Virus record (IMG/VR): IMGVR_UViG_3300042154_002208
Source of the DNA: a virus
Lineage: Duplodnaviria; Caudoviricetes
Length of the DNA: 64,000 bases
Direction: 5' to 3' (one strand)
Shown here: piece after piece, positions 39,313 through 62,096 of the stretch
Position numbering within the stretch: the stretch's first letter is position 1
Layout of the letters: every line of letters starts with the position of its first letter
Notes under the pieces: model-generated
Database searches by the model: none
Told to the model about the DNA's origin: nothing
Seen by the model: only the letters and a program-made list of their open reading frames with translations
Program-made: the position numbers and the translations under genes

Positions 39313-39728
39313 AAACTTTTAAAGAACTAAAAGAAAAAAATGATAGTTTAGTAGAGGCAGTTAACAAAGGTTGCCCTATTGCTACTCATGATTTAGATAT
39401 TAATGTTAAAAATCGGCAAGAGGCTATAGACGATCATCATTATGGTCCTGCCAATCCAGATGAACCTGGAGACTATTGGAAAATTTCAGCTAAGCAATGG
39501 GGTATTAGTGAGAAAACAGCGCAGACCATGAGATGCAGTAACTGCGCTGCATTTAATATTACCGATGCAATGTATAAATGCATTGAAGATGGTATGGGCA
39601 AAGAAGCATTTGAAGCTGAAAAAACTAGAGAATCTGCAGATTTAGGATATTGTAACTTGTTACATTTTAAATGTGCTGGTACTAGAAGTTGCGAACTGTG
39701 GATAACAGGCGGCCCTATTATAAAATAA
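39309..39728 (+). CDS. Cys-rich conserved phage hypothetical protein
   Basis: CP...RCSNCAAF...GYC...FKCAG.RSC motifs. Confidence 0.7.
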   Translation: MKTFKELKEKNDSLVEAVNKGCPIATHDLDINVKNRQEAIDDHHYGPANPDEPGDYWKISAKQWGISEKTAQTMRCSNCAAFNITDAMYKCIEDGMGKEAFEAEKTRESADLGYCNLLHFKCAGTRSCELWITGGPIIK

Positions 39729-44554: not shown

Positions 44555-44738
44555 AATCTTCATACATTATTTTAGCACCATCCTCACCCAATTCATTTAC
44601 AAATATCTCATGAGTACGTTGCATCATGGCACATGCCATCATTAGTATATCTTCTCTATTATCGCACATCAAAATCTGTTGTTCTATAGGAGCCATTAAT
44701 TCTTCCATGCGTTGTTTTGTTGTGTCGTTATTGTTCAT
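44547..44738 (-). CDS. Hypothetical protein
   Basis: GAGGAG RBS, ATGA coupling. Confidence 0.7.
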   Translation of the reverse strand: MNNNDTTKQRMEELMAPIEQQILMCDNREDILMMACAMMQRTHEIFVNELGEDGAKIMYEDYV

Positions 44739-44902
44739 ACAATCTCCTCAAGAATGCCCAATAGTTCTGCAGTAATTAACAATAGACCGGCAATAACAAA
44801 ATCACCCGTGATTAAGTATGCCCCTGCTATAATTCGCATTCCACTTTTAATCAAACTGATATAAAAGTGACCTTTGCTTGTATCTTTTGGCTGAATATCC
44901 AT
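44735..44902 (-). CDS. Small membrane protein, 55 aa, not in the ORF track
   Basis: MDIQPKDTSKGHFYISLIKSGMRIIAG...AELLGILEEIV; first gene after the leftward promoter. Confidence 0.7.
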   Translation of the reverse strand: MDIQPKDTSKGHFYISLIKSGMRIIAGAYLITGDFVIAGLLLITAELLGILEEIV

Positions 44903-44936: not shown

Positions 44937-44965
44937 ATTATATATTCTTTTTGATGTCTTGTCAA
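44937..44965 (-). promoter_or_regulatory. Leftward sigma70 early promoter
   Basis: Minus strand TTGACA-17 nt-TATAAT; drives the five-gene minus-strand operon. Confidence 0.85.
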
Positions 44966-45008
44966 GCACTTTTTTAGCAGAAATTCGAATCTTTTTGACT
45001 AAAAAGGC

Positions 45009-45037
45009 TTGACAAGATGTGCATTTGCACATATAAT
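45009..45037 (+). promoter_or_regulatory. Rightward sigma70 early promoter with palindromic spacer
   Basis: TTGACA-17-TATAAT; spacer has ATGTGCA-TT-TGCACAT (45017-45032). Confidence 0.85.
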
Positions 45038-45102
45038 TATGACATGATGAAAAGTAAATTTGTGCAAATCAAAAGAACCCATAAAGCCAAAAGGGTTATT
45101 GC

Positions 45103-45131
45103 TTGTGCAAATGTGCAAAAGCAATTATAAT
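45103..45131 (+). promoter_or_regulatory. Promoter with variant -35 (TTGTGC)
   Basis: TTGTGC-17-TATAAT preceded by GGGTTATTGC, as in other cassettes. Confidence 0.6.
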
Positions 45132-45162
45132 AGATATATAGCAAACAAAAACAGGAGTTAGT

Positions 45163-46071
45163 ATGCGTGTAAAAGTAATTTTCAACAAAGCAAAGAATCG
45201 TTTCGAAGGTTTTGTTGATGGTAAAATGGTCTCAAGATCACGTCATGAATCTTATGTGCGCGACCAGATTGCTAAATTAGGTTTGCAAGTAGAACCAGTA
45301 AGCGGTACTGTAAATACCCAGCCCAAGGTTGACGAATTTGGTATCAACAAGCGTTTTGACTTTGTTGCACAAATGGTCACAATGGTTGCTAAAAAGACTA
45401 TCGCATCGGCAATTATCACAGGCCAAGGTGGCTTGGGTAAGACACATACTGTTTTGAAATCACTCAAAGCACAGAACTTGATTGACACTACAGACTTAGC
45501 ACAGTTCGAAGAAGGTGCTCGCATTAATAGTGAAAAGAGTTTTCGCATTGTAAAAGGTTACAGTACTGCTAAAGGTCTGTATCGCACATTGTTCGAAGGC
45601 AATGGTCAAGTATTAGTATTTGATGACTGCGATAGCGTGCTCAAAGACCCAGTTGCTCTTAATTTGCTCAAGGGTGCACTTGACTCATACGGCGAACGCT
45701 GGATCAACTGGAATGCAGACATGAAAGATGACGATCTGCCCCGCAGTTTCAAATTTACAGGTAGCATTGTGTTTATCTCGAACATGGATCTTGATCGTGT
45801 AGACCAAGCTGTTAAGAGTCGTGCAATGTGCGTTGACTTGAGCATGACACAAGCTCAAAAGATTGAGCGCATGGAAGTGTTGATTGACGATTCAGAGTTT
45901 ATGCCAGAGTTTGCAACATCGCATAAAGCTGACGCAATTGCATTTATCAAGACAATTGGTAATAGCATTGAGAACTTGAGTTTGCGTTCGTTAATCTCAA
46001 CGACAAAGATTCGTGCAGAAGGTGGCGATTGGAAACAATTGGCTAAGTATGTATTGACACAAGGTGCTTAA
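45163..46071 (+). CDS. AAA+/P-loop ATPase
   Basis: Walker A GQGGLGKT, Walker B LVFDD, FISN sensor, AVKSR. Confidence 0.85.
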   Translation: MRVKVIFNKAKNRFEGFVDGKMVSRSRHESYVRDQIAKLGLQVEPVSGTVNTQPKVDEFGINKRFDFVAQMVTMVAKKTIASAIITGQGGLGKTHTVLKSLKAQNLIDTTDLAQFEEGARINSEKSFRIVKGYSTAKGLYRTLFEGNGQVLVFDDCDSVLKDPVALNLLKGALDSYGERWINWNADMKDDDLPRSFKFTGSIVFISNMDLDRVDQAVKSRAMCVDLSMTQAQKIERMEVLIDDSEFMPEFATSHKADAIAFIKTIGNSIENLSLRSLISTTKIRAEGGDWKQLAKYVLTQGA

Positions 46072-46072
46072 T

Positions 46073-46300
46073 ATGACAGACCGAGATATGGGAAATTTAA
46101 TGTTCTTATTGAAAGCAGACGATGAGACATTTAGACACTGGCTTGAAAATTGTAGCTTTGACGATATTGCATATGCAAATGAATTGATTACTGCATATAG
46201 AAAAGAGAAAATATATCTAGCAGAAGATGTCGATGATTTCTCTCTTGCTAAAGATGTTCTAAGTAAATTCACATTAGGTACGAAACTCAAGAATGGCTAG
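46073..46300 (+). CDS. Hypothetical early protein
   Basis: ATG 46073 follows the ATPase stop. Confidence 0.65.
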   Translation: MTDRDMGNLMFLLKADDETFRHWLENCSFDDIAYANELITAYRKEKIYLAEDVDDFSLAKDVLSKFTLGTKLKNG

Positions 46301-46547
46301 TCTAAAAGATCATTTTGAATCCGTTAGATACTTTGGTAAATATCAATTAGGTGATAGAGTTACTGGAGTGTACAAAGGTGTTAGGTGGGTAGGCTCTGTG
46401 GGTAATGACAGGGTTATCAACGAACAACAAGGCCCTACAGTAACTATTCATCTTGATTTACCTTTCAAGATCGAAGACGAAATATACAAGCATATACTTA
46501 TTGTCAAACCCAAAGATATTAAAAGATTAACTAATTATGACGTATAA
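46293..46547 (+). CDS. Hypothetical early protein (SH3-like beta)
   Basis: Overlapping operon arrangement. Confidence 0.65.
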   Translation: MASLKDHFESVRYFGKYQLGDRVTGVYKGVRWVGSVGNDRVINEQQGPTVTIHLDLPFKIEDEIYKHILIVKPKDIKRLTNYDV

Positions 46548-46824
46548 TAGAGAATTAGTAATAAACACTAAAGATTGTGTTTATCATCCTAAAGCCAAAC
46601 GATTAACTATCTCTACAGAGAAAATAGCTGGCTCGATTATCTTTCCTAATACAGTATATGTCAAATCACATCATACTAATAATCAGATAACATTTAAACC
46701 TATTAAAGAAACTCATAATGATTTTGACCAAGATCAATGGGATGGTGAACAGCAAATATATGAACCAATATATACTGGAGTTAAAGTTAATGTTAAAACT
46801 CTGGTAATATATCGAGGCGAATAA
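46537..46824 (+). CDS. Hypothetical early protein
   Basis: Overlapping operon arrangement. Confidence 0.65.
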   Translation: MTYNRELVINTKDCVYHPKAKRLTISTEKIAGSIIFPNTVYVKSHHTNNQITFKPIKETHNDFDQDQWDGEQQIYEPIYTGVKVNVKTLVIYRGE

Positions 46825-46834
46825 TCAGTGTTGC

Positions 46835-46863
46835 ATTATAACATCGTTCAAGTGTTCTGTCAA
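46835..46863 (-). promoter_or_regulatory. Leftward (antisense) sigma70 promoter
   Basis: Minus strand TTGACA-gaacacttgaacgatgt-TATAAT; no minus-strand gene downstream. Confidence 0.7.
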
Positions 46864-46900
46864 GCACGTTATAGTACCCATACAAATTGCTCGGGAATGC

Positions 46901-46929
46901 TTGACAGGTTGTCCAAAATGTGCTATAAT
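46901..46929 (+). promoter_or_regulatory. sigma70 early promoter, extended -10
   Basis: TTGACA-17-TATAAT with TGTG extension. Confidence 0.9.
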
Positions 46930-46953
46930 TGAGACATAGCAAAAAGGAAATAT

Positions 46954-47268
46954 ATGAAATTAGTCATTTCAACTCAAGTATACGAAAATTATGGTGCTCA
47001 CGATTGGGATGGTACTGGCGAGTGCCCTCAATACTGGAAAGCCAAAGGCGGTAGCGATTACGCTATTAAGAACTTCAAAGGTGGCGATGAAGAGGCTGTC
47101 AAAGCAATCTTTTGTTTACGTCCAAAGATTGAGAGTGACGACGAGTTCTATCGTGAGTATATCCTAAGCTGGAACATTGTCGGCGACGACTACCTCACAG
47201 AGTTCGAGCAGTCACAGCTTGACTACGAAGGCAAGATTCGTTTCCCCGTCAAGGAGTTGGCATGGTAA
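46954..47268 (+). CDS. Conserved phage hypothetical early protein
   Basis: AAAGGA RBS; TQVYENYGAHDWDG.GECPQYWKAKGG. Confidence 0.75.
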   Translation: MKLVISTQVYENYGAHDWDGTGECPQYWKAKGGSDYAIKNFKGGDEEAVKAIFCLRPKIESDDEFYREYILSWNIVGDDYLTEFEQSQLDYEGKIRFPVKELAW

Positions 47269-47339
47269 TGAATATTTTATTAGGAATGTGTATTGGTGTT
47301 TGTTTGGGTCTAGCAATACATCTTTTTTATATTGACTAA
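47268..47339 (+). CDS. 23-aa hydrophobic peptide
   Basis: TAATG coupling, AAGGAG upstream; MNILLGMCIGVCLGLAIHLFYID. Confidence 0.45.
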   Translation: MNILLGMCIGVCLGLAIHLFYID

Positions 47340-47348
47340 GGAATTATA

Positions 47349-47618
47349 ATGCGTACAAAGACATTGGTTGACGGTTTAAAGAATTCACAAAAGATCCGAG
47401 TCATTATAGATGGCTTTGGAATCTATACTACGGTCGGCAATATATTCAATGTATATGCTCATCACAGCTTGAAGCAGGCAGCATGGGATGGGTTGTTGCG
47501 TTTGAGTAGCGATCGCTATTTTGCTGAAAGAGCAAACAAAGAATTACCAACGATGGTTAGCATAAAGAGTATGAATACTACTCAGATTGCTAAGCAAGTA
47601 CAAATTGATTTGATTTAA
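47349..47618 (+). CDS. Hypothetical early protein
   Basis: AAGGA RBS. Confidence 0.7.
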   Translation: MRTKTLVDGLKNSQKIRVIIDGFGIYTTVGNIFNVYAHHSLKQAAWDGLLRLSSDRYFAERANKELPTMVSIKSMNTTQIAKQVQIDLI

Positions 47619-47627
47619 GGAATAGAT

Positions 47628-48182
47628 ATGCCTAATTGGTGCAGTAATACAGTTCGCCTCACCCATGAAGATCCAGCTATGATTATTCGAGCGCGCGACG
47701 CTTTGACAAATGGTACATTCTTTAATGAGTTTGTTCCAGTACCGAAAGGATTATCTGAATCAATAGCATCGTCAGAAACAGACGAAGCATTGATAAAGTC
47801 AAACATCGACAAGTTTGGTTACGCATCCTGGTATGATTTTTGCGTAAATGAATGGGGAACGAAATGGGATACGGAATGCCATAGCGTCGATATCTATGAA
47901 GAGCATCCTGACACACTCGAGGCAGTATTTGATACAGCATGGGCACCACCTGTTCCGTTTTATGAAAAGCTAGAACGTATGGGTTTTCAGGTTGAGGCAA
48001 AATACTATGAGTCCGGTATGTGCTTTGCTGGAATGTATTCTAATGGTTCAGACGATTACTACGAACTCGGCACAATGTCAGCAGAAGATGTCGAGCGCAC
48101 TATTCCCGAAGAGCTAGATGCCGAGTTTGGCATCAGCGATAATATGTATCAGTATGAAAAGGATAACAATGAAGACGTTTGA
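47628..48182 (+). CDS. DUF1281/Api92-like (YubB ferredoxin-like) protein
   Basis: MPNWCSN, WYDFCVNEWGTKWD, FDTAWAPP. Confidence 0.8.
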   Translation: MPNWCSNTVRLTHEDPAMIIRARDALTNGTFFNEFVPVPKGLSESIASSETDEALIKSNIDKFGYASWYDFCVNEWGTKWDTECHSVDIYEEHPDTLEAVFDTAWAPPVPFYEKLERMGFQVEAKYYESGMCFAGMYSNGSDDYYELGTMSAEDVERTIPEELDAEFGISDNMYQYEKDNNEDV

Positions 48183-48396
48183 CACATTTGAACAAGTAGA
48201 AGACATGGGCGCTTGCATGAAGCGACCTATTGTAGTACATGCTAAAAAGATTGATGAGGACTTTCGTGTGAATACACTCGAAGGAAATTACAAGCAAGGC
48301 AAAGCTGGTGACTATTTGATGCGAGGAGTAGATGGAGAATTATACATCTGCGATGGTCCGATATTTGATAGAACCTATGATTTTGTAAGTGCTTAA
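48169..48396 (+). CDS. Small conserved phage protein (PGDYG-like motif)
   Basis: TLEG...GKAGDYLM.GVDGELY.C...IF..TY; start at ATG 48169. Confidence 0.65.
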   Translation: MKTFDTFEQVEDMGACMKRPIVVHAKKIDEDFRVNTLEGNYKQGKAGDYLMRGVDGELYICDGPIFDRTYDFVSA

Positions 48397-48416
48397 TATT
48401 TAAGCAACGAGGATAT

Positions 48417-48728
48417 ATGGAAAAAGTAATTAGAGACGGCAGAGTTGCTGTACTGGTATCGCCGGGTTTCGGTGCAGGTTGGTCTACTTGGAATAGAGAT
48501 GTGCCAGAATTGCTATTTGACCCAGCTATTGTTCAAATGGTTGGCGATGGTACAAGACCTGATACAATTGAATTATATTGCGAGGCCAAGTATCCCAACC
48601 AGTATTTTGGTGGAGCTAGCGATCTGACGGTAGTGTGGGTACCAGTCGGTACAGAATTTATAATAGATGAATATGATGGTGCAGAATCTATCATATTCAA
48701 AGACCAAGAAAAATGGATAACAGCATGA
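48417..48728 (+). CDS. Conserved phage hypothetical protein
   Basis: VAVLVSPGFGAGWSTWN...F.IDEYDGAE. Confidence 0.75.
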   Translation: MEKVIRDGRVAVLVSPGFGAGWSTWNRDVPELLFDPAIVQMVGDGTRPDTIELYCEAKYPNQYFGGASDLTVVWVPVGTEFIIDEYDGAESIIFKDQEKWITA

Positions 48729-48994
48729 ATGAGAATATAAGAAAAATAATGGAAAAGGCTGACATGCCTATGTGGCAAGATGAGCCATGGGGACCTGGGC
48801 CAGGACATGTGGACTGGCAAGGAGTTGACAGTAAATGCTTTGAAGTCTTTTTGCATCACTTGATTAATGAAGCGGTAGGCGTCGTTGCCAATGCCAGCAC
48901 ATCATCTGCATTCACGACATTTGATCAGGCGGTTGTTGTATCTGCACTGGCTAATGCACGCAAAGATATCAAGAATCACTTCGGTGTCAAGTAG
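48725..48994 (+). CDS. Hypothetical early protein
   Basis: ATGA coupling; MNENIRKIMEKA start. Confidence 0.65.
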   Translation: MNENIRKIMEKADMPMWQDEPWGPGPGHVDWQGVDSKCFEVFLHHLINEAVGVVANASTSSAFTTFDQAVVVSALANARKDIKNHFGVK

Positions 48995-48997
48995 TGC

Positions 48998-49026
48998 ATT
49001 TTAACATCTTTCAAGTGTTTTGTCAA
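48998..49026 (-). promoter_or_regulatory. Leftward (antisense) sigma70 promoter
   Basis: Minus strand TTGACA-aaacacttgaaagatgt-TAAAAT; spacer nearly identical to 46835-46863. Confidence 0.65.
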
Positions 49027-49053
49027 TACCCCAGAAGTCTGAAGGGTTATTGC

Positions 49054-49082
49054 TTGTGCTTTTAGCCCGAATGTGCTATAAT
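49054..49082 (+). promoter_or_regulatory. Promoter with variant -35 (TTGTGC), extended -10
   Basis: TTGTGC-17-TATAAT; ATG 49089 is 6 nt downstream. Confidence 0.65.
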
Positions 49083-49088
49083 TAGGGC

Positions 49089-49391
49089 ATGAGAAAGAAA
49101 AGATCAGACAGACGCCATATCGTTTACATGCTACAAAATGTAGCAACCGGAGATTTCTACATCGGAATTACTCAGGGTTTTCGCAAGCAGGACCTCAAAA
49201 TCCGCGTACAAAAGCACATTAGACGGGCATTGACTGAGCACAAGTCCTGGACGCTATGCGACGCTATCAGGTCCTACGGGGTCTCAGCATTTGTTGCACA
49301 AGAACTTGCCATCGTCAGAGGCAAAGCTCCAGCTCACGCTTTAGAACGCCAGTTAATTGGTGAGTACTCACCAACATTGAACTCGCAGTAA
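49089..49391 (+). CDS. Small GIY-YIG domain protein, apparently leaderless
   Basis: IVYML......FYIGIT...R...H...E. Confidence 0.7.
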   Translation: MRKKRSDRRHIVYMLQNVATGDFYIGITQGFRKQDLKIRVQKHIRRALTEHKSWTLCDAIRSYGVSAFVAQELAIVRGKAPAHALERQLIGEYSPTLNSQ

Positions 49392-49411
49392 CCCTAGTTT
49401 CCAAAGGGTTA
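49389..49411 (+). terminator. Stem-loop immediately upstream of an early promoter
   Basis: TAACCCT-agtttccaa-AGGGTTA. Confidence 0.45.
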
Positions 49412-49471
49412 TTGCTTGACAAGTTGTCCAAAATGTGCTATAATTAAAGCATGAAAAAGGAAAACAAAATG
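49412..49471 (+). repeat. 60-bp promoter-RBS-ATG cassette, copy 1
   Basis: 59/60 identical to 51296-51355; includes TTGACA(49416)-17-TATAAT(49439). Confidence 0.9.
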
Positions 49472-49651
49472 ACAGTATACATTTTACAAGCACAGGGTCT
49501 GGGTGATAACGAATTTGCATTTTACAACACTGGCGTTTATAGCACACTGGAATTTGCACAAAATGCAGAACAGAATCTTATTCGTGAGTCGCATGACGAC
49601 GGGCTTACTGATATCGCAACTAACATAGAAATGCTGGAATTGGATTGCTAA
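49469..49651 (+). CDS. Hypothetical early protein
   Basis: AAGGA RBS, ATG 49469. Confidence 0.7.
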   Translation: MTVYILQAQGLGDNEFAFYNTGVYSTLEFAQNAEQNLIRESHDDGLTDIATNIEMLELDC

Positions 49652-49652
49652 A

Positions 49653-49946
49653 ATGAGAGACGATAGAAAAGATTACGTAGTTAAAGAGACCTGGCAAGAT
49701 GGTTCTGAGACTTATTTTATTTCCAGAGAGCATCAGCCAGAAGATGCCATTCACAGAGTGAACGTACGCTGGGATTCTATGGCACACGTATTCGGAGCAC
49801 ACGGCACCGTTATTACAAGACCAACAGCATTTGAGATATATAACGCAACAGTAGAAGATATGCCTCATTACTGGCACCCAGCATCAAGCATCAGTTCGCT
49901 TGTGAAACGTGTTTATCTTTTAGACGAAATGGAACATTATGGTTAA
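49653..49946 (+). CDS. Hypothetical early protein
   Basis: Operon position. Confidence 0.6.
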   Translation: MRDDRKDYVVKETWQDGSETYFISREHQPEDAIHRVNVRWDSMAHVFGAHGTVITRPTAFEIYNATVEDMPHYWHPASSISSLVKRVYLLDEMEHYG

Positions 49947-50160
49947 TAATATAGTTGTACCAGAATTTGGAATGTTCACCGAAGAAGGTGATTACGAAGT
50001 ATATCGCATTGTCGATTTAGCTTTAAGAGCGAATCTAACCTGGAATCAGGTAAAAGGATTATTAGAGCAATTGGCTACGGATCTGGGTCACGAAGAAGCC
50101 ACAGATACAGTAGTTCGCGAACGAGTTTGGGAATATCTATTTTATGAAAGCAGACCATAA
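49939..50160 (+). CDS. Hypothetical early protein
   Basis: FGMFT.EG...V..IV...EA.DT.VRE.V motif. Confidence 0.65.
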   Translation: MVNNIVVPEFGMFTEEGDYEVYRIVDLALRANLTWNQVKGLLEQLATDLGHEEATDTVVRERVWEYLFYESRP

Positions 50161-50161
50161 T

Positions 50162-50332
50162 ATGAGTAAATACGAATTTTTAGAAATGTTAAACGACGAA
50201 TATCCGCCAGTCAATCTAGCTGGTATTGAATACAGTTTTGGATATGCTCTGAAAGAATTAGATCCAATTCGACTCGACGTAATGTACAATGATTATTGCT
50301 CAATGCTGGAAGAGGAAGAATATGAATCTTGA
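50162..50332 (+). CDS. Small acidic hypothetical protein
   Basis: Start ATG 50162; LKELDPI....MYNDY. Confidence 0.6.
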   Translation: MSKYEFLEMLNDEYPPVNLAGIEYSFGYALKELDPIRLDVMYNDYCSMLEEEEYES

Positions 50333-50501
50333 TAATCTGATCGACGAATACGTCACAATATTAGATCGAGATCCCTTAGATCATTCGGAATCAACTGATG
50401 TTATTCTGCAAGAGTTCGCGAATAAAGTAATTGAACTCACTCGTCACGATCTTGGTCAAAGTAATTATTACAAAAAGCAACACAGTCTCTGGATAGATTA
50501 A
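50322..50501 (+). CDS. Hypothetical protein
   Basis: GAGGA RBS, ATG 50322; LQEFANKVI. Confidence 0.55.
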   Translation: MNLDNLIDEYVTILDRDPLDHSESTDVILQEFANKVIELTRHDLGQSNYYKKQHSLWID

Positions 50502-50502
50502 A

Positions 50503-50622
50503 ATGATATTCTACGTTATTGCTATAATCTTTTCAGCATACGCAATATCCACGAACGATGTTTACTATTTGGCTTTGTCATTAATCGCATGTGCTATAGC
50601 AATTATTGTGGAACGAGACTGA
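50503..50622 (+). CDS. 39-aa two-TM peptide
   Basis: MIFYVIAIIFSAYAISTNDVYYLALSLIACAIAIIVERD. Confidence 0.5.
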   Translation: MIFYVIAIIFSAYAISTNDVYYLALSLIACAIAIIVERD

Positions 50623-50702
50623 TGCCAGAATTAGCATTCGTTGTATTAATGATACTGATAATAGCAATCGTACTAAACGATAAAGGTCCACCATATGATT
50701 AA
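50622..50702 (+). CDS. 26-aa single-TM peptide
   Basis: TGATG coupling; MPELAFVVLMILIIAIVLNDKGPPYD. Confidence 0.4.
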   Translation: MPELAFVVLMILIIAIVLNDKGPPYD

Positions 50703-51069
50703 AAGAAAATTCGTAGTAGCGGGTAATATGAAAGAATATTATGCATTTCTTGATAAGCATAAAGATGATATTAACGTAATTTATCTATATGTCAACAGCA
50801 CGAGAGATCTAAAAGGAATGCGGAATATAGAAGGATATTTTACTGGTACTTATAACGAGAGATCTGATATAGAAACGATTAAAGAAGTAATAAGAATGAG
50901 CAAGAATAAAACTAATAATGAATATACTGCAGAACCAGTACGAGCATTAGATAATAATCACGTAATAGATTATAGATGGAAAGCATTGGAAACGACCGTA
51001 GATAATGCACATGATCTTCAGCAATTGGCAGATAATAGCATGATAGATAGCATGAGAAATCGAGATTAG
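50695..51069 (+). CDS. Hypothetical protein (3' part overlaps AGATAAT repeats)
   Basis: FVVAGN..EYYAF...LKGMRNIEGYFTGTY.ER.D. Confidence 0.55.
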   Translation: MIKRKFVVAGNMKEYYAFLDKHKDDINVIYLYVNSTRDLKGMRNIEGYFTGTYNERSDIETIKEVIRMSKNKTNNEYTAEPVRALDNNHVIDYRWKALETTVDNAHDLQQLADNSMIDSMRNRD

Positions 51070-51079
51070 TAGATAATAC

Positions 51080-51230
51080 TGTGGATAACCTGTGGATAAA
51101 TCGAAGAATAATCGAGCCTATATAGAAATGCTATATAAAGCTATTAAAGCATGAATCAGATCAGATCAGATCAGATAATACTTTATATTAAAGGAATTAT
51201 TATATTTTGATTATCTTTTTATTTGTCTTG
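51080..51230. other. oriC-like element: tandem DnaA boxes, GATC repeats, AT-rich tract
   Basis: TGTGGATAA at 51080-88 and 51091-99 (=TTATCCACA on minus); (ATCAG)4 at 51155-74; very AT-rich 51175-51230; non-coding. Confidence 0.55.
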
Positions 51231-51231
51231 C

Positions 51232-51260
51232 ATTATAACATCTTTTTCAAATCCTGTCAA
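51232..51260 (-). promoter_or_regulatory. Leftward sigma70 promoter pointing into the oriC-like element
   Basis: Minus strand TTGACA-ggatttgaaaaagatgt-TATAAT. Confidence 0.75.
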
Positions 51261-51295
51261 CCGAAGACCATACGACCCTTGTGGAAAAAAGGTTT

Positions 51296-51355
51296 TTGCT
51301 TGACAAGTTGTCCAAAATGTGCTATAATTGAAGCATGAAAAAGGAAAACAAAATG
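51296..51355 (+). repeat. 60-bp promoter-RBS-ATG cassette, copy 2
   Basis: 59/60 identical to 49412-49471; TTGACA(51300)-17-TATAAT(51323). Confidence 0.9.
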
Positions 51356-51541
51356 CAAAAAGAAATTACCGTAAAAGTCGAGCTAAATGCTCAACAAATC
51401 GCCCTTCTGCTTCAGATTCTAGACGAACAAATCTCAATCGGAAATATGGTATCTTCAGATAATGCTTTAGCTTTCGGAGTCTTAGAAATTCTAGAAACAG
51501 CTGAAAATACAGCTTACTCACATCTTCATTATTTTTCTTAA
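51353..51541 (+). CDS. Hypothetical early protein
   Basis: AAGGA RBS, ATG 51353. Confidence 0.65.
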   Translation: MQKEITVKVELNAQQIALLLQILDEQISIGNMVSSDNALAFGVLEILETAENTAYSHLHYFS

Positions 51542-51553
51542 TAAGGAACCATT

Positions 51554-51757
51554 ATGTCTATTCAATACGGTACATTATCAGAATTCGATATCATTGCTAA
51601 ATATACAAAAGAATCAGGTTTAGGAACCGATTTAATTGCTGGTCTAAAATCAATAAAAGAAAATTGGGATGACCTAGACGAGGATATTACAGACGCCTAT
51701 GACGAAGTCGTTTATCAATTATCTATATTCACCAAGGAAGCTGAGTATCTTGTCTAA
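51554..51757 (+). CDS. Hypothetical early protein
   Basis: AAGGA RBS. Confidence 0.65.
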   Translation: MSIQYGTLSEFDIIAKYTKESGLGTDLIAGLKSIKENWDDLDEDITDAYDEVVYQLSIFTKEAEYLV

Positions 51758-51766
51758 TTAAGAAAT

Positions 51767-51795
51767 CAATACCCCTTCAGAGATCTGGGGTATTG
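51767..51795 (+). terminator. Stem-loop abutting the -35 of an early promoter
   Basis: CAATACCCC-11 nt-GGGGTATTG perfect 9-bp stem. Confidence 0.65.
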
Positions 51796-51796
51796 C

Positions 51797-51825
51797 TTGA
51801 CAAGTTATCCAAAATGTGCTATAAT
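51797..51825 (+). promoter_or_regulatory. sigma70 early promoter, extended -10
   Basis: TTGACA-agttatccaaaatgtgc-TATAAT. Confidence 0.9.
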
Positions 51826-51867
51826 AGAGTCATAGTAAGTAAAAAGGTTGTTGAAGTAAAGAGCATT

Positions 51868-51925
51868 TAAGCCCGCTTGAGGAACAGCGGTAAAGCCCCA
51901 GAGCACTAGGGCACTTAGATGGGGC
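51868..51925 (+). ncRNA. Candidate structured RNA in a 5' leader
   Basis: CCGCT/AGCGG and GCCCCA/TGGGGC stems, possible pseudoknot; GC-rich island in an AT-rich leader. Confidence 0.35.
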
Positions 51926-51952
51926 AACGAGTAATCTATATAAGGACCTAGT

Positions 51953-52129
51953 ATGAAAATAGAAACAGCGATCAAGCATTTGGAATCAGATGCAGATTTC
52001 TTGGGAATGGAGTTTTTCGACTTCGTGGCTTTTGTTAAAGCAAATCCCATGGCACAGACCGCCAAGACCATTGAGGCTTATGCAGTATTCGCAATCGAAA
52101 GTAAAAAAGCATGGAACAAAGTAACATGA
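51953..52129 (+). CDS. 58-aa hypothetical protein, not in the ORF track
   Basis: AAGGA RBS; MKIETAIKHLESDADFLGMEFFDFVAFVKANPMAQTAKTIEAY... Confidence 0.65.
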   Translation: MKIETAIKHLESDADFLGMEFFDFVAFVKANPMAQTAKTIEAYAVFAIESKKAWNKVT

Positions 52130-52341
52130 ATAAAGATCTAAGAGAACTAGCACCAGTACCGAAAGAAGTCGCCCGCGAGATGCAAGAAGATGCAGTCGCA
52201 AGGTTCCTAGCTGCCGGTGGTTCCGTTCAAGAACTCAAAGGCCGTAAGAACCCAAAGCCGGTTTCGGCCAAAGGCAAATCAAACTCTGGCATGAAGCTCA
52301 GAGCGGATCCAACTGCCCGGTTCCCCTCAAAAAGCTATTGA
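52126..52341 (+). CDS. Basic hypothetical protein
   Basis: ATGA coupling; VARFLAAGG.VQ motif. Confidence 0.65.
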   Translation: MNKDLRELAPVPKEVAREMQEDAVARFLAAGGSVQELKGRKNPKPVSAKGKSNSGMKLRADPTARFPSKSY

Positions 52342-52366
52342 CAAGATTTCTACATGGTGTTATAAT
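52338..52366 (+). promoter_or_regulatory. sigma70 early promoter
   Basis: TTGACA-17-TATAAT. Confidence 0.85.
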
Positions 52367-52398
52367 ACTCTATGTAGCAACACAGAAAGGTCTATATT

Positions 52399-52659
52399 AT
52401 GAGAATGTTAACTGAAGCTGAAAGCAATCTGATCAACAACACAGAATACACTGTAGATTGGTCTGATCAAATTGATACTGACGACACTTTGTCTGGAGCA
52501 CAATGGGACTATGAGCGCGAACTCGAGCATCGCTTTGAAGTACTCGTTGCTGGCAAGTGGGATTCTCGAGATGATTTGGGTGGTCTCACAGTATTCTTCA
52601 AAGAGAATAAACTCGTGGCATTTTATGACTACGAACAGTATGCTGGCACTGTATTTTAA
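52399..52659 (+). CDS. Hypothetical early protein
   Basis: AAAGG RBS. Confidence 0.65.
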   Translation: MRMLTEAESNLINNTEYTVDWSDQIDTDDTLSGAQWDYERELEHRFEVLVAGKWDSRDDLGGLTVFFKENKLVAFYDYEQYAGTVF

Positions 52660-52806
52660 TGTTTGCTGGCGCTAGAAAGTGAGAAAACGGCGTTATAAGT
52701 CTATGAAAACATTAGCTTTTTTACGCCGTTTTTCTAAAAACATGCTAAAAGATGCCGTCCGTAGGGGTAAATACCCTATTCCCGCGTATGGTCTTTGATA
52801 AAATGC

Positions 52807-52835
52807 TTGACAGGTTGTCCAAATTGTGCTATAAT
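52807..52835 (+). promoter_or_regulatory. sigma70 early promoter, extended -10
   Basis: TTGACA-ggttgtccaaattgtgc-TATAAT. Confidence 0.9.
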
Positions 52836-52871
52836 AGAGTCATATTAAGAAACAAACAACAGGAGTAGATT

Positions 52872-53105
52872 ATGACCGATTCAGCAGCCCCAATGATCCC
52901 AGATCACATTACCGTAGCAGACATGATTGCGGCATTGTCGGCATTGCCCGCAGACGCTCGCTTGGTTGTGACCCACTCCGGATACTACTGTTACGACGAC
53001 TTCGCAGACATCTTCACCCCACGGCCTGTAGATTCCAATGGATCCACCTGTGCAGACGGTGACGCTATAGCGTACGCTATTGGTCACTCTCATCAGTCCT
53101 ATTAA
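52872..53105 (+). CDS. Hypothetical early protein
   Basis: AGGAG RBS; ITVADMIAALSALPADARLVV. Confidence 0.7.
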   Translation: MTDSAAPMIPDHITVADMIAALSALPADARLVVTHSGYYCYDDFADIFTPRPVDSNGSTCADGDAIAYAIGHSHQSY

Positions 53106-53114
53106 CCACACGGG

Positions 53115-53143
53115 TTGACAGGGTATTCAAACGGTGTTATAAT
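53115..53143 (+). promoter_or_regulatory. sigma70 early promoter
   Basis: TTGACA-17-TATAAT. Confidence 0.85.
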
Positions 53144-53167
53144 AAAGACATGAACAAAGGAACACAG

Positions 53168-53263
53168 ATGATTAAAGAGCTAGCGATAGAAGTATCCCAA
53201 GCAGCGCTGTTCGTAGCAGTTGCATTCGGTCCGTTTTTCTACTACATTTTGACAAAGGTTTAA
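53168..53263 (+). CDS. 31-aa single-TM peptide
   Basis: AAAGGA RBS; MIKELAIEVSQAALFVAVAFGPFFYYILTKV. Confidence 0.55.
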   Translation: MIKELAIEVSQAALFVAVAFGPFFYYILTKV

Positions 53264-53264
53264 G

Positions 53265-53561
53265 ATGACTATCAATTACAAAGCAATGGGTGAGATGATT
53301 ACAAGCAACGAAAAATACAAGCGTGAGATCGCAATGTACGGTATGACCACAGACCAGATTAAAGTGGAGTACATGGCCATCGGTCGAATGACAGGCCTAG
53401 AGATGGTCGTTGCTGGCATTCTGTCAGATGTGCAAGAACTTACTGCGTACCAGCATGCGGCGGATATAAACAGCAAGGCTACAAAGGAACTTATTCGCCA
53501 GCAGTTAAACATCGCGAAATTTGTGTTATTTGAAATGATGGATCAAAAGGAAACAGCATGA
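53265..53561 (+). CDS. Hypothetical early protein
   Basis: YGMT..QI...Y...MVVAGILSDVQE motif. Confidence 0.7.
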   Translation: MTINYKAMGEMITSNEKYKREIAMYGMTTDQIKVEYMAIGRMTGLEMVVAGILSDVQELTAYQHAADINSKATKELIRQQLNIAKFVLFEMMDQKETA

Positions 53562-61208: not shown

Positions 61209-62096
61209 ATGATTGTTGTTGATTACAGCCAAACGGCTATTTCAAATTTGATGGCAGAAATTGGCGGTAGAAAAGATATTGAAATTCAAGTGCCACTATT
61301 GCGTCACATGATTTTAAATTCAATTCGAGGTTACAAACAAAAATTCGGAAAAGAATATGGGCAGTTGGTTATTGCCGTAGACAATAGAAATTATTGGAGG
61401 AGACAAGAATTCCAATATTACAAAGCTGGCCGCAAAAAAGCTCGTGAGGATTCTGGTCTAGATTGGAAAACAATCTTTGAGGCTCTTGATCTAATCAGAA
61501 ATGAGATCGATAAGTTTTTCCCCTATAAGGTTGTTAACGTCGATGGCGCAGAAGCAGATGACGTTATTGCAGTTTTAGCAGAGTGGTCTCAGACAAATGA
61601 TTTTGCCGGTGGTGGAGTATTTGAAGATGATCCTAAACCGTTTCTAATTGTTTCCGGTGATCATGATTTCATTCAACTTCAAAAGTTTAAGAATGTCAAA
61701 CAATTTTCCCCGGTACAAAAGAAATATGTTAAACCTGAGATGTCACCTAAACAGTACATCTTTGAACATACAATTAAAGGCGATAAGGGGGACGGAGTAC
61801 CTAACGTATTGTCAGCGGATGATAGTATTGTTGCAGGTGAACGACAAAAACCAATTACAACTAAAAAATTAGAAGTGTGGTATAAAGATGCAACTACCAT
61901 GCCGCAGGATGATGAATTTAAAAATAGATTTGAGCGCAATCGCAAATTGGTTGACTTTACCTGCATCCCAGAAGAGATTAAAAATTCTATTATAAATAAC
62001 TACACAGGTCAGCCTGATAAAAACAAGAGTATGCTTTTGAACTTTTTCATTGAGCATAAAATGAAGAATATGTTGGAATTAATTGAGGAGTTCTGA
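61209..62096 (+). CDS. rnh: RNase H / 5'-3' exonuclease (T4 rnh)
   Basis: VDYSQ, YWRR..F.YYKA.RK, EADD.I, SGDHDF.QL, KGDKGDGVPN. Confidence 0.93.
   Translation: MIVVDYSQTAISNLMAEIGGRKDIEIQVPLLRHMILNSIRGYKQKFGKEYGQLVIAVDNRNYWRRQEFQYYKAGRKKAREDSGLDWKTIFEALDLIRNEIDKFFPYKVVNVDGAEADDVIAVLAEWSQTNDFAGGGVFEDDPKPFLIVSGDHDFIQLQKFKNVKQFSPVQKKYVKPEMSPKQYIFEHTIKGDKGDGVPNVLSADDSIVAGERQKPITTKKLEVWYKDATTMPQDDEFKNRFERNRKLVDFTCIPEEIKNSIINNYTGQPDKNKSMLLNFFIEHKMKNMLELIEEF

Follow-up and report, generated by a model that had tools for sequence, protein, structure and literature searches.

Can a T4-like phage engage the DnaA protein of its host in replication, when T4 itself is the textbook case of DnaA-independent initiation? 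To our knowledge, no motif is common to the origins of T4, nor can these origins be recognised in other T4-like phages, and our literature search brought up no description of DnaA boxes for any T4-like phage. The question is raised by a short intergenic locus of an uncultured lake-water T4-like phage, of which we analysed one stretch of 64 kb (hereafter the window). A first-pass annotation made from the letters alone had seen there a bacterial oriC-like element that might serve as a hybrid DnaA- or transcription-activated origin, or as a decoy for host DnaA. Here we compare this locus with its relatives and with known origins and DnaA sites. Judged by its conservation, the segment 51068-51260 is a non-coding element of a freshwater T4-like phage group, which we tentatively read as a promoter-driven origin that would be assisted by host DnaA.

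Results

Setting of the locus and sampling of relatives

The plus strand carries every long ORF of the window, including nrdA and nrdB at 36-39 kb and a T4-type RNase H gene at 61209-62096. The module falls in a 12-kb block of small early ORFs with recurring, near-identical cassettes of a stem-loop and a sigma70-type promoter, and in a 265-bp gap (ORF 50695..51069 to ORF 51335..51541) where neither strand has a credible ORF. Its features are listed in Table 1. The DNA runs that match the window are lake-water metagenomes, and in the phage collection no cultured phage gave a nucleotide match to the window by megablast or blastn. Our comparisons are based on 12 distinct haplotypes, assembled from nine viral contigs, five metagenome contigs and nine looked-up homologues of the 124-aa neighbour, in which the neighbouring protein is 50-95% identical to the 124-aa protein of the window. 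In the relatives' records, which span 24-82 kb, the module is single-copy. RNA evidence comes from three lake metatranscriptome runs, the contigs of which are 90-95% relatives and cover coding parts only, none of them spanning 51070-51290.

The genes around the module offer few functional hints. The 124-aa protein has 33 homologues (50-96% identity), its AF2 model is poor (pLDDT 58.8), and searches with it returned no Pfam or PHROG family and nothing from the Atlas; the ORFs flanking the module gave no match to Rep or to any other family. A search for gp59 in the partial records of the relatives returned no match, and neither did its search controls. In several haplotypes a minus-strand remnant of 117 aa, with NUMOD3 motifs only, no catalytic domain and its own TATAAATA late promoter, lies between the 124-aa gene and the boxes, and in three haplotype classes this NUMOD3 gene stands behind the boxes in place of the 124-aa gene.

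The locus is also mosaic. In one DNA run (X5; window 49000-53500) several haplotypes co-exist in a single lake sample; junctions map to 50976/51070 and 51099/53403, loose ends to 51253 and 51328, and mosaic breakpoints therefore coincide with the borders of the module and of the adjoining PeSL cassette. Many assemblies terminate at the module locus.

Table 1. Features of the module and its surroundings (window coordinates unless a contig is named)
Feature	Position	Strand	Description
124-aa gene	50695..51069	+	Final gene of the upstream early operon; from the ORF list; directly left of the module in most haplotypes
NUMOD3 homing-endonuclease remnant	L123:3372-3725; also L134, L142, L147, L154, L157	-	
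Weak DnaA-like box	51068..51076	-	7/9 match, reading AGTAGATAA on the plus strand; upstream of box A by 3 bp; overlaps the stop codon
DnaA box A	51080..51088	-	TTATCCACA on the minus strand; perfect in the window, weaker GGGGGATAA in most relatives
DnaA box B (strong, core-proximal)	51091..51099	-	TGTGNATAA in 11/12 haplotypes
11-bp phased unit	51102..51111		GAATAA core; in relatives, one to several additional units at this place
Conserved core	51112..51153		Invariant TCGAGCCTAT, four bases, AAATGCT; from haplotype alignments
(ATCAG)4 microsatellite	51155..51174		Three GATC; window only
Conserved AGATAATACTT	51173..51183		At the AT-tract edge; 11/12 haplotypes
AT-rich tract, candidate DUE	51175..51230		Duplex stability minimum
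PL, leftward early sigma70-type promoter	51232..51260	-	Predicted start near 51225, firing into the AT tract
PeSL-type cassette	51275..51328	+	Stem-loop, then rightward early promoter 51300-51328 serving ORF 51335..51541

A conserved pair of DnaA boxes

The two perfect DnaA boxes on which the first-pass annotation was built are indeed present: TGTGGATAA occurs at 51080-51088 and again at 51091-51099, in one orientation, with a 2-bp spacer and hence an 11-bp period. Three perfect boxes are observed in the 64 kb against 0.93 expected, the third, at 39697, lying inside a coding frame. By arithmetic from the window counts, the chance of finding a second perfect box 2-3 bp downstream of another is ~1e-5, and the pairing of perfect boxes is not a matter of chance.

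Conservation of the boxes in relatives, which had been named as a check, holds across the 12 haplotypes, and it takes the form of a DnaA-type substitution pattern. All 12 haplotypes keep a tandem pair in the same orientation. At eight of the nine positions of box B the entropy is 0-0.41 bits, with flanking columns mostly at 1-1.8 bits; the fifth position, which is free in the consensus TTATNCACA, reaches 1.28 bits (G in seven haplotypes, T in four, A in one), and this N of TGTGNATAA is the only position that varies freely. Two haplotypes have a perfect partner box, and in the rest it matches at 7-8 of nine positions; the spacer between the two boxes measures 2 bp in 11 haplotypes and 3 bp in the twelfth, and its sequence is variable (CC, AC, TA, TAC). 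In haplotype L146 the pair is formed by the weak box, TAC and the strong box, and in L152 the same arrangement yields a third box. In vivo, E. coli DnaA occupies double boxes, and spacings outside 2-3 bp abolish its binding (PMC11317965); the pair described here has just this form, both boxes pointing the same way across a gap of 2 or 3 bp, with one or both of them near consensus. Because variation falls at the free position and the spacer length is kept as in the E. coli pairs, there is a strong, if indirect, case that these are selected DnaA sites, to which the DnaA of the host would bind.

Phased units and an invariant core

Between box B and the conserved core, each haplotype carries one to several units with a GATAA or GAATAA core. 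The resulting distances from box B to the core are 21, 32, 42, 43, 53, 54 and 73 bp, each within ~1.5 bp of a multiple of 10.5, so that helical phase seems to survive the insertions; this phasing was seen post hoc, and the insertion events are not all independent. Such keeping of phase is reminiscent of DnaA oligomerisation arrays.

The indels between the conserved blocks are not multiples of three, and the region is therefore non-coding. Since, in addition, the module and its core match no Rfam family and the predicted fold of the PL transcript is not significant (z -1.5), we take the module to be an element that works at the level of DNA. Across the haplotypes the core shows no consistent hairpin or covariation. 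A coding remnant of a GIY-YIG endonuclease, suggested by a minus-frame YIGS at the core, was set aside because of frame stops and the non-triplet indels. Searches with the core pattern recovered, among viral contigs, only the known relatives plus two chance matches in coding sequence (L149, L150) and, among bacterial genomes, one chance match in a Francisella contig (L151); none of these chance matches resembles the window. Core and boxes stay invariant amid diverged flanks, even where the neighbouring protein is only 50-55% identical, and this block-wise conservation together with the DnaA-specific substitutions indicates purifying selection.

The least stable DNA of the window

The AT-rich tract at 51175-51230 was correctly recognised from the outset (86% A+T). 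Its first 40 nucleotides (51175-51214) are the least stable 40-mer of the whole 64 kb, and the least stable 100-mer (51119-51218) overlaps it (z 3.1-3.3). The DNA between core and promoter likewise holds the least stable 100-mer in six of six relative loci (4.6-14.9 kb), its sequence having turned over.

Other repeats of the locus proved less telling. The reported GATC cluster exists, as an (ATCAG)4 with GATC at 51159, 51164 and 51169; the proposed Dam/SeqA role does not follow it, because the cluster is private to the window and GATC is replaced in relatives, which have one such site or none (GAAC, GAAT or GGTC stands in its place in several haplotypes, and in one it is lost). The window holds 235 GATC sites against 223 expected, which is no enrichment. 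At the microsatellite site, relatives have one unit or (GATTA)4, the latter for example at L146:~480-505, and the occurrence of different 5-bp microsatellites at one spot suggests slippage-prone DNA at the edge of the DUE. The five AGATAAT copies (50949, 51000, 51030, 51071 and 51173) are likewise real, with five of the 13 plus-strand copies falling within 225 bp; three of them, however, are Asp-Asn codons in ORF 50695..51069, explained by the conserved LDNN and xDNS motifs of the 124-aa protein, and of the other two, one lies in the weak box AGTAGATAA and one in the conserved AGATAATACTT. The DnaA-trio-like run TATTATCTACTA had to be abandoned as a feature: it is part coding, shares bases with the stop codon of the upstream gene and varies from each haplotype class to the next. 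In the long haplotypes only, five GATTATC/GATAATC repeats in both orientations lie between the AT tract and the leftward promoter (L123:4030-4100, with the same place occupied in L142, L148, L153, L154 and L157); they look like operators or iterons.

The leftward promoter belongs to a family

The leftward promoter PL matches the consensus at 12 of 12 hexamer positions (TTGACA, 17 nt, TATAAT, with a TG extension; 51260..51232) and has no credible minus-strand ORF behind it, just as the annotation had stated. Its hexamers are kept in all 12 haplotypes and its spacer has diverged. The module was never seen without PL; in other words, the boxes are linked to the promoter in 12/12 haplotypes.

What does not hold is that such a promoter is special to this site. 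PL is a member of repeat family D5, together with 46827-46863 and 48990-49026, and the same kind of leftward promoter occurs in three other back-to-back cassettes. Altogether there are four such divergent pairs (44965/45009, 46863/46901, 49026/49054 and 51260/51300; window 44937-51328), all composed of perfect or near-perfect sigma70 promoters; the three geneless leftward promoters form family D5, and the 44965 promoter drives true minus-strand genes. The operon concerned (44735-44902), the first product of which is a 55-aa hydrophobic protein, is a minus-strand one in an otherwise one-strand window. The leftward promoters of the pairs 46863/46901 and 49026/49054 fire into the 3' ends of upstream plus-strand ORFs, and at these two cassettes there are no boxes and no DUE. 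Relatives keep all four pairs, and one relative has a fifth in addition. Because the same leftward promoter recurs at other cassettes, PL has, or at least can have, a role that is independent of the DnaA module.

Cassettes of promoter and stem-loop (PeSL) have been described for the hyperplastic regions of T4-like phages (PMC2839356, PMC4122927). Those of the window likewise recur next to small early ORFs and at mosaic junctions, and differ in that four of them add a back-to-back leftward promoter; the 2014 PeSL paper makes no mention of bidirectional, opposite or antisense. At the present locus, the defining combination of a repeated stem-loop with an early promoter, among small ORFs of a hyperplastic region, is confined to 51275-51328, and the DnaA module itself lies outside the PeSL repeat. 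The divergent pairs resemble a PeSL cassette made bidirectional, which would give antisense early transcripts. The stem-loop and rightward promoter of 51275-51328 belong to repeat families D1-D3, which have 6-9 copies between 45 and 59 kb. One more candidate repeat, GGCTCGATTAT at 46630, lies inside an ORF and is likely due to chance.

Comparison with known origins and DnaA sites

The minimum of the T4 origins oriF and oriG is a promoter with an A+T-rich DUE of exchangeable sequence downstream within ~100 bp, the R-loop being processed by RNase H into a primer, and T4 oriE has an early promoter and phased direct repeats (PMC3016281). With oriF (uvsY) and oriG (34) the module shares a promoter for the host RNA polymerase and an A+T-rich DUE just downstream, within 100-200 bp, the unstable 40-mer and 100-mer beginning 10-50 bp from the predicted start; with oriE it shares an early promoter, PL being early-type and not MotA-type, and the phased repeats. 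On the other hand, oriF and oriG have MotA-dependent middle promoters, lack DnaA boxes and show no sequence similarity to the module, and the module departs from the T4 origins at large in that its promoter comes from a repeated cassette family and its role as an origin is a predicted one.

The analogy with bacterial oriC and its basal unwinding system fared worse. Tandem boxes in the same orientation are there, but no GC-rich spacer and no run of at least three DnaA-trios (3'-[G/A]AT-5') follows them; the side on which trios would be expected, left of 51080, is taken up by the end of the 124-aa reading frame with its stop codon or, in relatives, by the NUMOD3 gene. Nor does AT-rich DNA lie beyond trios: the AT tract is found across the core, 75 bp from the boxes, and thus on the opposite side as compared with E. 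coli R1. Because trios, GC-rich spacer and polarity all fail, the element is, judged by its layout, not a copy of a bacterial oriC.

Plasmid origins offer parallels as well. The ColE1/pBR322 origin relies on an R-loop primer, with a DnaA box behind the R-loop that helps to load the helicase, and in P1 oriR and F oriS tandem DnaA boxes lie by an AT-rich stretch, P1 oriR having two boxes and a stretch that bears GATC. What the module has in common with these origins is a transcript-primed or AT-rich opening combined with DnaA boxes. It differs from ColE1/pBR322 in having no RNA II-like folded primer, and from P1 oriR, F oriS and pSC101 in having neither a Rep gene nor conserved iterons: the GATTATC repeats occur only in L123-type haplotypes, no Rep gene is adjacent, and in place of the conserved GATC cluster of P1 there are three GATC sites in the window only.

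Among DnaA sites outside origins, the double boxes of the E. coli DnaA regulon (Stringer, Fitzgerald and Wade 2024, PMC11317965) are similar in consisting of two 9-mers with the same orientation and a gap of 2-3 bp, one of them often perfect and the other a 7/9 match; they control host promoters, whereas the present pair belongs to a phage, where it follows a promoter and has a DUE beside it. The injection-stop region of T5 has conserved, non-coding pairs of DnaA or DnaA-like boxes 3 bp apart (bioRxiv 10.1101/866236) and so provides a precedent for box pairs in a virulent phage with its own replisome; it differs in its eight boxes, its inverted repeats, its location in the terminal repeat and its proposed role in DNA injection. 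Compared with datA, where several essential DnaA boxes are clustered with an IHF site, the module has two to three boxes at one locus per record, and reading its sequence showed no good match to the IHF consensus.

The box pair itself is widespread. At least 119 unrelated viral contigs (L001-L119, IMG/VR), with a GC content of 33-67%, contain the exact 20-mer TGTGGATAACCTGTGGATAA; 85 of the 119 sites lie outside any ORF of at least 80 aa, with a median of three consensus boxes within 150 bp, often in larger 11-bp phased box arrays and in some cases at contig ends. Around the 20-mer at 101 unrelated viral loci, AT-richness shows no consistent polarity and no uniform AT-rich flank, and these sites are therefore heterogeneous. 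Their occurrence in at least 119 unrelated contigs suggests that recruitment of DnaA by phages is common and little studied.

Discussion

Because the module combines the two sequence-level hallmarks of oriF and oriG with a selected DnaA site over which the transcript would pass, we favour, at somewhat less than even probability, a model in which it is a T4-type promoter-plus-DUE R-loop origin assisted by host DnaA. Host RNA polymerase would initiate at the early promoter PL, near 51225, and the transcript would immediately enter the DNA that melts most easily, where, by analogy with T4 oriF and oriG, it could form an R-loop. The RNA would then be processed to a leading-strand primer, conceivably with the T4-type RNase H encoded at 61209-62096. 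Host DnaA, bound to the double box as a dimer or short oligomer, would sit ~75-145 bp downstream on phased sites and could help to open the duplex or hold it open, or else load the helicase on the displaced strand. From what is observed, namely the motifs and their conservation, the stability minimum and the conservation of the promoter, we infer the binding of DnaA, the R-loop and any replication that might ensue. What survives of the originally proposed hybrid of DnaA- and transcription-activated origin is thus the selected boxes linked to a promoter and to the least stable DNA; its oriC-type features do not. GC skew, recommended earlier as a check, runs monotonically across the window, the genes of which are all on one strand, and gives no origin signal.

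Several observations count against an origin. The L123-type haplotypes have ~190 bp, including the GATTATC repeats, between PL and the AT tract, a spacing unlike the tight layout of T4 oriF and oriG; a fork primed from PL would meet all plus-strand genes head-on; and PL, not being specific to the module, may have a general antisense role. DnaA is, moreover, dispensable for T4 replication. Finally, the double DnaA boxes of E. coli are mostly sites of transcription control and not origins (PMC11317965).

This last point leads to the main rival, an explanation that we regard as unlikely and yet worth weighing, in which the double box is a roadblock for, or regulator of, the antisense PL transcript, and perhaps of read-through from the upstream operon. 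PL RNA would enter the 124-aa gene only if host DnaA, or ATP-DnaA, were scarce, so that early gene dosage would follow the replication state of the host; other factors would act at the AT tract and the core, or else these would be leader sequence. Such control would suit the position of the boxes, ~126-145 nt downstream of the PL start and right after the stop codon of the upstream gene, as well as their form, which is that of E. coli DnaA regulon sites (PMC11317965), and RNA polymerase can be stopped by DnaA that sits within a transcribed region (refs 27-29 of PMC11317965). In addition, because leftward promoters of the same family fire antisense to upstream early ORFs at two other cassettes, conserved in relatives, antisense transcription looks like their general job. 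However, those two promoters manage without any such roadblock, three haplotype classes have the NUMOD3 gene and not the 124-aa gene behind the boxes, and the conserved stability minimum, the invariant core and the phased units would all be left without explanation.

The same unexplained features, the DUE, the core and the phasing, along with the promoter, weigh on the idea that the module is a decoy with which the multiplying phage genome titrates or inactivates host DnaA, in the manner of datA, and thereby stops host initiation. The box pair is perfect or near-perfect and conserved, as a decoy would have it, and its 20-mer in at least 119 unrelated viral contigs implies that phages in general seem to gain from DnaA sites; with only two to three boxes per genome in the available records, no conservation of the SeqA/GATC part, and other means by which T4-like phages usually stop their host, we nevertheless consider a decoy highly improbable. 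We give no more credit to the suggestion that the module is functionless debris, left by the shuffling of PeSL cassettes or by homing-endonuclease traffic at a recombination hotspot. The region is certainly mosaic, hyperplastic and full of PeSL cassettes (PMC2839356, PMC4122927), several haplotypes have the NUMOD3 remnant with its TATAAATA promoter beside the boxes, and many assemblies break there, but debris would scarcely keep an invariant core and boxes amid diverged flanks, with substitutions specific to DnaA, which bespeak purifying selection.

Returning to the DnaA-assisted R-loop origin, one may go further and suppose that this T4-like lineage has a fixed early origin, at which an R-loop made by the host polymerase works together with a host DnaA dimer or oligomer on phased boxes; we put this forward as a possibility, and still more guardedly than the assisted origin itself. 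If true, this would give the T4-type phages their first DnaA-assisted origin, and for the first time an origin conserved in a group of uncultured T4-like phages would be defined by sequence. Both parent kinds, the R-loop origin design of T4 and the double DnaA box, are already known; the combination appears to be new, and its function is a predicted one.

Taken together, the module is conserved and defined in sequence, and it joins the promoter-plus-DUE design of T4 with a selected site for host DnaA. For an abundant group of uncultured freshwater phages it provides a candidate origin that can be cloned, and it allows one to ask whether large virulent phages with a replisome of their own still recruit the initiator of their host. 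Should it instead prove to be a DnaA-gated antisense switch, it would link early phage expression to the replication state of the host.
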